IMG/VR virus record: IMGVR_UViG_2778261067_000008
Span: 1 to 42,756 of that record
Origin: a virus
Lineage: Duplodnaviria; Heunggongvirae; Uroviricota; Caudoviricetes
DNA length: 42,756 nt
Direction: 5' to 3' (one strand)
Shown: positions 12,001 through 15,000 of the stretch, one piece after another
Layout of the letters: every line of letters starts with the position of its first letter
Position numbering within the stretch: position 1 is the first letter of the stretch
Made by a program: the position numbers

Positions 12001-15000
12001 TGGCTGATAATGCCAGCGATCAGGGTGAGTGCTGGCCCAGCTACCAGCATATTGCTGACCAGTGCGAGATTAGCAAACGTTCTGTGATGAATCATATTGC
12101 GGCCCTTTGTGATTCCGGGCTGGTAAAAAAAGTCACCCGGAAAGGTGAAAAAGGTAACTCAAGTAATATCTATCTCCTTCATCTTGATGGTGCAGGAGAT
12201 TCACTAGGGGGTAGTGCAAATAATTCACTATCTGGTGCAGCAAATTCACCAGGTAGTGCAGGAGTTGCACCAGGGGGTAGTGCAGGAGATTCACCCAGAA
12301 CCAGTCACTCTTTTGAACCAGTCAAAGAACCAGTCAATGAACCAATAGCTGTTGGTGCATCTGCTGATGAGTCTGTGCGAGTTCGTTCAAACCGACCGGA
12401 ATACTCTCCGGAGTTTGAGCAGGCATGGCTGGCATACCCCAAACGTGCTGGTGGCAATTCAAAATCTGCAGCCTTCAAAGCCTGGAAAGCCCGTTTGAAT
12501 GAGGGGGTAAAACCCGAAACCATGCTGGAAGGTGTGAAACGCTACGCGGGCTGGGTATCTGCGATGGGTAACAGCGGAACACAATTTGTGAAACAGGCTG
12601 TCACGTTCTTTGGTCCGGATCGTCATTTCGAAGAATCCTGGGAAGTTCCTGCGGTATCTGCAGCCAGACGCGAGGACCCGTACTTCAAAGCCAGTTACGA
12701 CAACGTGGACTACAGCCAGATCCCGGCAGGATTCAGGGGGTGATCATGAGTCTTTTGAATGAAGTTCAGAAATTCATTGAAGCCCATCCGTGGTGTACTT
12801 CCGGAGACATTGCGGATGCTTTTGCAGGTTACTCACGGCAGCGCGTTCTGCAGTCAGCAAGCAAGTTACGTCAGAGTGGGCGTGTGGCTCACCGTTGTGA
12901 AGGAGATACACGCAGACATTTCCCACGCCTGACTGAGAGAGCGCAGGAGCCGGAACCACAACCAGTTCGTGAAACCAGACCTGTGCGCAATTTCTATGTC
13001 GGCACTAACGATCCCCGGGTGATTTTGTGCCTGACCCGCCAGGCGGAAGAACTGGAGTCTAGGGGCTTATACCGTCGTGCTGCAACGGTGTGGATGGCGG
13101 CATTCCGTGAAAGCCACTCCCAGCCAGAACGAAACAATTTTCTGGCGCGTCGTGAGCGGTGCTTACGGAAAAGCAGCAAGCGCGCTGCATCAGGTGAAGA
13201 GTGGTATCTGTCAGGGAATTACGTGGGGGCTTAATGAGTAATAAATATTGCCAGGCGCTGGTGGAGCTGCGGAACAAACCAGCCCATGAACTGAAGGAAG
13301 TGGGCGATCAGTGGCGCACGCCGGATAACATTTTCTGGGGAATTAACACCCTGTTTGGCCCGTTTGTTCTGGATCTGTTCACTGACGGTGATAACGCCAA
13401 ATGTGCCGCGTATTACACGGCGGAAGACAACGCGCTGGCGCATGACTGGTCAGAACGTCTTGCGGAGCTTAAAGGTGCTGCCTTTGGTAATCCCCCATAC
13501 AGCCGCGCCAGTCAGCATGAGGGGCAATACATCACCGGCATGCGTTACATCATGAAGCATGCCAGTGCCATGCGTGATAAAGGCGGGCGCTATGTTTTCC
13601 TGATCAAAGCTTCCACCAGCGAAGTGTGGTGGCCGGAAGACGCAGACCATATTGCTTTTATTCGCGGGCGTATTGGTTTTGAACTTCCTGCCTGGTTTAT
13701 CCCGAAGGATGAGAAGCAGGTGCCGACAGGCGCTTTCTTCGCTGGTGCTATTGCTGTTTTCGACAAGACCTGGAAGGGACCGGCAATCAGCTACATCGGG
13801 CGCGATGAACTTGAGGCATGTGGCGAGGCGTTTCTGGCGCAGGTTCGCCAGCAGGCGGAAAAACTGGTCAGGGAGATGGCGGCATGACGACGTTAACTCA
13901 ATGCCAGCAGCAGGTGCTGGATATGCTGATTTCTTACCAGCAAGAACGTGGCTTCCCGCCAACCAATCAGGAGGTGGCAACCATGCTGGGATACCGTTCA
14001 GTGAATGCAGCGGTGGAGCATCTTCGCGCACTGGAGAAAAAAGGCGTCATCACGATAAAGCGTGGCGTGGCCCGGGGGATAACGCTTCATACCGCGGTGA
14101 AGGACGACGACAGCGAGGCGGTCGGGATTATCCGCGCACTGCTTGCCGGTGAGGAAAACGCCAGGCTGCGTGCAGCCCACTGGTTACATGAGAGGGAGCT
14201 GAAAGTATGAAGCTGATTCTGCCTTTTCCGCCCAGCGTGAACACGTACTGGCGACACCCCAACAAAGGGGCGTTTGCTGGTAAGAGCCTGATAAGCGCGG
14301 CGGGGCGAAAATTCCAGAGCGCGGCGTGTGCAGCAATAGTTGAGCAGTTACGTCGTCTGCCAAAACCAACGTCGGCACCTGCTTCAGTGGAGATCGTGTT
14401 GTTTCCTCCGGATAACCGGATCCGCGATCTGGACAACTATAACAAGGCGCTGTTTGACGCCCTGACCCACGCGGGTGTGTGGGAAGACGACAGTCAGGTG
14501 AAAAGAATGCTGGTGGAGTGGGGACCGGTTATCCCGGAAGGGAAGGTCGAGATCACTATCAGTAAGTACGAGAAAACGGCGGGTGCAGCCGCCTGATTAA
14601 GAGGAGAAACGAAGTATGAATAATCTGATGGTTATTGATGGTATTGAAGTTCGTCGTGATGCTTATGGACGTTACAGCCTGAACGATCTGCATCGCGCAG
14701 CAGTAGCATCTGGTGCAAATGCCAGAACCAAGGAGCCAGGAAAGTTTCTTTCCAGCCAACAAACTGTTGAGCTTGTTCATGAATTGACCAACACCCAGAA
14801 TTTGGGTGTTGACCCGGTGAGTGTGATTCATGGGGGAAATGAACGGGGAACGTATGTCTGCAAGGAACTGGTGTATGCCTATGCAATGTGGATCAGCCCG
14901 TCATTCCATCTGAAGGTGATCCGTACTTTCGATATGGTAACCAGCGCACCGGAAAAATTATCCGGACAGGCTGCTGACAAGATGCAGGCTGGCGTGATCC

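Follow-up and report, generated by a model that had tools for sequence, protein, structure and literature searches.

A LexA-like prophage protein with the DNA-binding domain, a conserved helical tail and no peptidase domain: a candidate RecA-insensitive binder of SOS boxes

The LexA-like protein and its tail

The stretch of DNA analysed here (the window) comprises the 42,756 nucleotides of IMG/VR virus record IMGVR_UViG_2778261067_000008 and contains a prophage of about 40 kb. Its rightward early region carries a gene for a 108-amino-acid LexA-like protein, located between genes for a Dam-like methyltransferase and a RusA-family Holliday-junction resolvase (Table 1). The product is identical to RefSeq WP_040088106.1, 'LexA family transcriptional regulator', and is matched by PHROG 362 ('transcriptional repressor') with E 1e-58. 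The Pfam model for LexA's DNA-binding domain (PF01726 LexA_DNA_bind) aligns over its entire length, positions 1-65 of 65, with amino acids 1-65 (E 2.6e-19; 69.2 bits against a gathering threshold of 23.7). The 108-amino-acid protein has no match to the S24 peptidase domain (PF00717) with its Ser/Lys dyad, and there is no space for such a domain because the start of the RusA gene lies within the stop codon of the LexA-like gene. The full-length lexA model (NCBIfam TIGR00498) gives 70.3 bits, under its cutoff of 110.95, and covers only model positions 1-91 of 203. An earlier note on this DNA had aligned the protein with the N-terminal winged helix of LexA and found no S24 domain, and both observations were reproduced. 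These results support the assignment of the protein as a LexA homologue that retains the DNA-binding domain only. It is not a LexA orthologue, since it lacks both the S24 domain and a conserved Ala-Gly site and scores under the NCBIfam lexA cutoff.

The similarity to LexA extends to the fold and to the residues that contact DNA. BLASTP against Escherichia coli LexA gave 43% identity over 90 amino acids (E 2e-21) with residues 1-70 ungapped, and HMMER aligned the DNA-binding domain without gaps to the LexA structures 1LEA and 3JSO. An AlphaFold2 model (predicted local distance difference test, pLDDT, 77.6) was matched by Foldseek to the same two structures over 67-69 residues, with a root-mean-square deviation of 1.2-1.5 Å and 49-51% identity. 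Helix 3 of LexA contacts DNA through S39, N41, A42, E44 and E45 (PMC3091678). Four of these five residues (S39, N41, A42 and E45) are kept at the LexA positions, which makes binding of CTGT half-sites by the LexA-like protein plausible. Among relatives at 39-53% identity, S39, N41 and the wing residues R64-G65-I66 are invariant and E45 is mostly retained. The protein thus resembles host LexA in fold, helix 3 and wing; it differs in having no S24 peptidase/dimerisation domain, and a response to activated RecA (RecA*) is not expected.

Residues A88-G89 of the window protein align with A84-G85 of LexA (LLAGEE motif). In close relatives this pair reads AN, AK or VG, and in distant ones TR, DD or ER. 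Amino acids 78-90 (EAVGIIRALLAGE), which both HMMER and BLAST place against the linker and Ala84-Gly85 region of LexA, were considered as a vestigial cleavage site, or as a trans-cleavable or pseudo-substrate tail, and this idea was dropped because Ala-Gly is not conserved in the family. Judged from the sequence, RecA-stimulated self-cleavage is not expected, since the peptidase domain is missing and the Ala-Gly motif is unconserved; the earlier note had suggested as much.

In the AlphaFold2 model, a linker of low confidence (amino acids 69-74) separates the DNA-binding domain from a tail of two confidently predicted amphipathic helices, with pLDDT of about 86 across amino acids 81-100. A Pfam search of the tail gave no match. 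Its hydrophobic pattern is retained family-wide, including the relatives at 39-53% identity, and a comparison of 63 distinct Enterobacter-type alleles gave a ratio of non-synonymous to synonymous substitution rates (dN/dS) of 0.19 in the tail, against 0.20 in the DNA-binding domain. Since purifying selection on the tail equals that on the DNA-binding domain, the tail is functional and not a remnant. We propose that it may serve in dimerisation or partner binding and so substitute for the dimerisation domain of LexA.

These observations bear on two alternative explanations. If the protein were a competitor or decoy, a weak monomer at SOS half-sites (or some other interference) would displace LexA, prolong or raise the SOS response and the RecA supply, and thereby favour ongoing cleavage of the repressor. 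The missing LexA dimerisation domain would fit such a role, and the identical recognition residues would permit competition for LexA sites. We regard it as improbable, since a monomeric domain would compete poorly against dimeric LexA, a conserved tail under selection suggests that the protein does more than an isolated domain would, and LexA is already being cleaved after induction, leaving little to add. The second explanation is that the gene is a functionless, decaying remnant of a captured lexA. It does resemble a truncated lexA, and its linker still aligns to the LexA cleavage-site region. This is highly unlikely given a dN/dS of about 0.2 in both halves, the fact that 2233 of 5426 complete E. 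coli genomes carry an intact gene, as do inducible phages (SfII, SfIV, SfV, mEp460, Stx2a/2c), and the persistence of the family across at least eight enterobacterial genera, Escherichia included.

The gene is thus common: it occurs in about 40% of those E. coli genomes, any one of which may hold as many as four copies, and in 61 phage records that further include cdtI, 1720a-02 and Stx2k phages. An exhaustive HMMER search recovered full-length relatives at 39-53% identity, with unchanged architecture, from Cronobacter, Kosakonia, Enterobacter, Cedecea, Klebsiella, Salmonella and Citrobacter. The family is probably Pham 237, a correspondence based on the domain, which is listed as a pfam01726 'LexA family transcriptional regulator' in 15 Stx phages (PMC8136144). 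A literature search for a functional study of the family returned catalogue mentions only. Phage 1720a-02 also carries the gene; a preprint about this phage attributes a block on induction of a co-resident prophage to Cro and does not mention the LexA-like gene in the available passages. The gene is therefore an already annotated (RefSeq, PHROG 362), uncharacterised phage-encoded truncated LexA homologue, set apart from others of its kind by the conserved tail and by LexA's own contact residues. As a separate observation, nine metagenomic proteins (P0126, P0134, P0141, P0144, P0148, P0155, P0158, P0162 and P0163) contain two LexA DNA-binding domains per chain and could be single-chain 'pseudo-dimers'.

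The early-right operon and its neighbours

The prophage is flanked by a DUF2713 gene (1-1005), presumably yjbM by the gene order of K-12, and by dusA (41343-42380), beyond which lies what we take to be pspG-like sequence. Its integrase looks like a dusA-targeting type. In the early region (9996-17188), most stop codons overlap or almost touch the next start, and the early genes are annotated in identical order in E. coli 1303, where the LexA-like product is again WP_040088106.1. A strong intrinsic terminator with a T-run follows Q (17296-17317, within 17200-17320), which would fit a Q-antiterminated late promoter/tR' arrangement in front of the lysis genes.

Table 1 Features of the prophage in the window.
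Feature	Position	Strand or direction	Basis or remark
PAPS (phosphoadenosine phosphosulfate)-reductase-domain gene, genuine	4737-5744	minus	
cI-like S24-type repressor	8953-9645	minus	helix-turn-helix (HTH) and PF00717
SOS box TACTGTTTTTACATACAGTA	9417-9436		inside cI gene; 17/20 consensus matches, best in window; candidate target
cro-like HTH gene	rightward of cI		annotated in related E. coli 1303 prophage
cII/CP76 gene	9996-10547	rightward	
Rha/Ash gene	10544-11707	rightward	
DnaD-like replication gene	11886-12743	rightward	
PerC/YfdN-like regulator	12740-13234	+	PF06069, E 8e-9
Dam-like phage N6-adenine methyltransferase, 217 amino acids	13234-13887	+	PF05869 and TIGR01712
Shine-Dalgarno-like GGGAG, then ATGA stop/start overlap	13871-13875, then 13884-13887	+	sequence
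LexA-like gene, 108 amino acids	13884-14210	+	PF01726
Winged helix-turn-helix DNA-binding domain, amino acids 1-65	13884-14078	+	
Recognition helix, amino acids 40-52	14001-14039	+	S39, N41, A42, E45 as in E. coli LexA
Two-helix tail (amphipathic), amino acids 75-87 and 93-103	14106-14192	+	AlphaFold2 secondary structure
RusA-family Holliday-junction resolvase	14207-14596	+	PF05866, E 6e-15
KilA-N gene	14616-15425	rightward	
DUF968/HNH gene	15427-16422	rightward	
Q gene	16436-17188	rightward	
DinI-like gene	39847-40095	minus	PF06183, E 1e-19
SOS boxes upstream of dinI-like gene	40109-40128, 40137-40156		16/20 and 15/20 consensus; candidate targets
Tyrosine integrase	40157-41254	minus	abuts dusA 5' end

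A scan of the window found no promoter-like site next to the LexA-like gene. Because the gene lies inside the early-right operon, in the chain that runs from cro to Q, it should be silent in the lysogen and its product made only after derepression or infection. The earlier note had suggested that the prophage tunes host SOS signalling or its own induction through this gene together with the S24-type repressor and the dinI-like gene. The early-right position argues against a part in the induction decision, as a protein made so late is unlikely to set the induction threshold; effects after commitment are possible. A PADLOC scan for a link to defence systems returned only a marginal CARF-HTH match (E 5e-4).

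Immediately upstream, the Dam-like methyltransferase was identified with high scores (PF05869, E 1.8e-45; TIGR01712, 254 bits with a cutoff of 97), and the ATGA shared by its stop and the LexA-like start was read in the sequence, both as the earlier note had it. Of the translational coupling proposed there, the overlap stands and the specificity does not. The junction is nothing special, because PerC/Dam (TAATG) and LexA-like/RusA (ATGA at 14207-14210) overlap too. Window proteins were also compared by tblastn with 170 IMG/VR loci encoding LexA-like relatives. Of 78 near-identical loci, 60 have Dam directly upstream; the other 18 lack it, and there the LexA-like gene adjoins PerC. The SfIV genome paper independently states that SfIV lacks the methylase found in SfII and SfV, and SfIV still carries the LexA-like gene. 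In the Enterobacter-type lineage, whose LexA-like proteins are about 45% identical, PF05869 Dam occurs in 0 of 79 loci and an MT-A70 methyltransferase plus a 75-amino-acid open reading frame (ORF) lie upstream instead. In eight loci, a C5-cytosine methyltransferase precedes a 158-amino-acid LexA-domain protein with a different C-terminus. An obligatory functional pairing of Dam with the LexA-like protein was rejected on the basis of these absences and replacements.

The slot upstream of LexA-domain-only genes is accordingly filled by methyltransferases of three unrelated families, PF05869 Dam, PF05063 MT-A70 and PF00145 C5 (e.g. locus L093, 3091-4004; locus L084, 647-4004). This recurrence may mark either a hot spot for methyltransferase morons or a functional association; no specific enzyme is necessary. 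The Dam-like gene is labelled 'phosphoadenosine phosphosulfate reductase' in RefSeq NC_019716, NC_049941 and NC_021857. This looks like a mis-annotation, probably carried over from PHROG 33262, a fusion-protein family of which Dam matches the C-terminal part only (positions 283-492 of 495); the window's genuine reductase-domain gene lies elsewhere (Table 1). The extra 86 amino acids of the ST64B Dam (sb44) were considered as a degenerate LexA-like domain and showed no similarity.

Downstream, the arrangement is constant. RusA directly follows the LexA-like gene in all 156 assessable loci of the full-length family. The genes of the 158-amino-acid variant (L084, 4001-4477; also L085-L091) likewise have a stop that overlaps the RusA start (ORF 4474-4872 in L084); this variant has the LexA DNA-binding domain of the family and a longer, different C-terminal region. 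RusA itself is found without the LexA-like gene in ST64B (80% identical RusA) and in Klebsiella phage 1 LV-2017 (71%), and the dependence therefore runs one way. These data raise the explanation that the LexA-like protein is a partner of RusA, either contacting it through the tail or shutting off the host's LexA-controlled ruvAB and so giving RusA access to junctions. The stop/start overlap in 156 of 156 loci would fit a partnership, as it persists while LexA-like proteins are only about 45% identical across lineages and while the upstream neighbour varies. Even so, RusA homologues at 71-80% identity manage without the gene, and the linkage may simply be an unbroken recombination block; we give this explanation a small chance.

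SOS boxes in the prophage

A protein with LexA's contact residues is most readily compared with SOS boxes. The window contains three strong ones, against 0.06 of such quality expected by chance. Two lie upstream of the dinI-like gene, a well-known arrangement for prophage dinI homologues (PMC8072944). This gene, by all appearances, is a typical LexA-controlled prophage dinI moron; it sits between a Hin/Pin-type invertase gene (39140-39703) and the integrase gene. The third box, and the best, falls within the repressor ORF at nucleotide +226, where a hypervariable linker separates the HTH and S24 domains. Of the cI homologues in the fetched loci, all 23 with an identity of 64% or more have an exact CTGT-N8-ACAG at this offset, and the cI genes of ST64B (sb38) and Klebsiella phage 1 LV-2017 also carry it there. 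The spacer and flanking codons of this box differ between homologues, but its arms, third codon positions included, do not; this looks like selection on the DNA. No promoter was found beside the box by scan or by eye, and literature searches found no report of an SOS box inside cI. The box might act as a LexA roadblock on cI transcription.

The S24-type repressor and the dinI-like gene with its two boxes are real, as the earlier note had stated. The tie that it drew between them and the LexA-like gene was not supported: the dinI and cI box modules assort independently of the gene. We rejected the cI-internal box as a private operator of the LexA-like protein because ST64B and Klebsiella phage 1 LV-2017 keep the box without the gene. 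The independence of boxes and gene is at any rate compatible with a protein that targets host-type boxes.

Weaker sites were also considered. A conserved SOS-like box near the lysis genes (17595-17614) was discarded, as it has only 12/20 consensus matches and no positional conservation. The perfect box in 23 related loci lies elsewhere, at the start of a late methyltransferase gene. In 22-23 related loci, e.g. in E. coli 1303, the good SOS-like box AATACTGTAAAAATAAACAGTG (locus L002, 8923-8938) spans codons 3-9 of a DNA methyltransferase gene in the late region, and the window has no such gene. The window has 25 one-mismatch CTGT-N8-ACAG sites against 13.9 expected. We distrust this excess because CTG/CAG codons are abundant and most of the spacers are GC-rich.

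SOS boxes are not the only conceivable target. The LexA-like protein could be a phage-specific regulator that activates or represses a promoter from its own operator in the phage genome, e.g. in the timing of late or accessory genes. The precedent is gp6 of GIL01, a Bacillus thuringiensis tectivirus: this truncated LexA homologue activates the late promoter P3 and does so by binding a palindrome (PMC6182141). It is the only characterised phage LexA-domain-only protein, and its site is GACACAC-GTGTGAC at -43.5 of P3. The two proteins are alike in being phage-encoded LexA winged-helix domains without a peptidase, and gp6 is expressed with the early genes. The fold search, in which a Tectiviridae LexA-domain protein matched the AlphaFold2 model at 29% identity, showed that small proteins with only the LexA domain are common among unrelated phages, and helix-3 positions 40 and 44 of the window protein deviate from LexA; both points favour a gp6-like role. 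There are also differences. gp6 is shorter, has no conserved helical tail, depends critically on K38 of a diverged recognition helix, recognises a palindrome that is not an SOS box and comes from a tectivirus with a Gram-positive host, whereas the E. coli protein has LexA's own contact residues (S39, N41, A42 and E45) and a two-helix tail of 35 amino acids. Furthermore, the window and related loci yielded no palindrome linked to the gene, the only strong palindromes of this type in the window being canonical, independently assorting SOS boxes, and the gene lies inside an overlapped operon with no adjoining promoter region. A gp6-like role is thus rather unlikely, while remaining the best supported of the alternatives to SOS-box binding.

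Possible action on SOS-box promoters

Taken together, these features suggest that the LexA-like protein would be a small LexA derivative that binds specific DNA sequences and in which a short flexible linker and the tail take the place of the S24 peptidase/dimerisation domain. Our preferred reading, to which we assign a probability of about 0.4, is that it is a RecA-insensitive binder of SOS boxes that acts in lytic growth. From the architecture and the position of the gene we infer dimerisation, SOS-box binding, repression and a benefit to the phage. The protein would appear only upon loss of the repressor or upon infection. Its tail would supply dimerisation, e.g. as a four-helix bundle, and the dimer would occupy CTGT-N8-ACAG boxes as LexA does, with RecA* being unable to inactivate it. 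The protein would then repress SOS-box promoters anew at a time when host LexA is being broken down. It could act on the host SOS regulon, on functions that LexA controls in rival prophages or colicin plasmids, and on the dinI and cI-internal boxes of the phage itself.

Several points weigh against this reading. Positions 44 (E in LexA) and 40 (P in LexA) are both Val in the window protein, and affinity or specificity may therefore differ from those of LexA. The isolated N-terminal domain of LexA binds operators weakly, so that function hinges on the proposed dimerisation by the tail. LexA-domain-only proteins need not target SOS boxes, since gp6 activates from a non-SOS palindrome. Finally, SOS-box binding leaves the perfect linkage to RusA unexplained, save for a speculative repression of the LexA-controlled ruvAB operon.

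The strongest form of SOS-box binding, a natural RecA-proof mimic of LexA that is dimerised by its tail and re-silences SOS-box promoters after lytic commitment, is tentative and somewhat less probable than binding as such. LexA that is uncleavable (Ind- mutants) or re-dimerised (LexA(1-87)-zipper fusions) keeps SOS genes repressed despite DNA damage. Those are laboratory constructs, and by analogy the window protein would be a natural phage version of them. Non-cleavable LexA variants have been used (PMC3159453). Other proteins of mobile elements also weaken or alter the SOS response of the host and the induction of prophages: GIL01 gp7 binds LexA (PMC4551915), prophage DinI homologues act on RecA filaments (PMC8072944), and Listeria AriS is reported to be a regulator of the bacterial SOS response (PMC9043618). 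All three differ from the LexA-like protein in being of unrelated sequence and mechanism, and none mimics the DNA-binding domain of LexA.

If the protein is such a mimic, host repair, mutagenesis and toxin genes would be shut down, along with the antirepressors or lysis genes that LexA controls in competing prophages and colicin plasmids, and RuvAB may be cleared to let the co-encoded RusA act. Should SOS boxes not be bound, the protein would simply be another small phage regulator. The host DNA-damage response governs the induction of Shiga-toxin phages, mutagenesis, persistence and the competition of co-resident prophages. Thus, should RecA-independent repression at SOS boxes prove true, a very common prophage gene would rewrite this response during induction.

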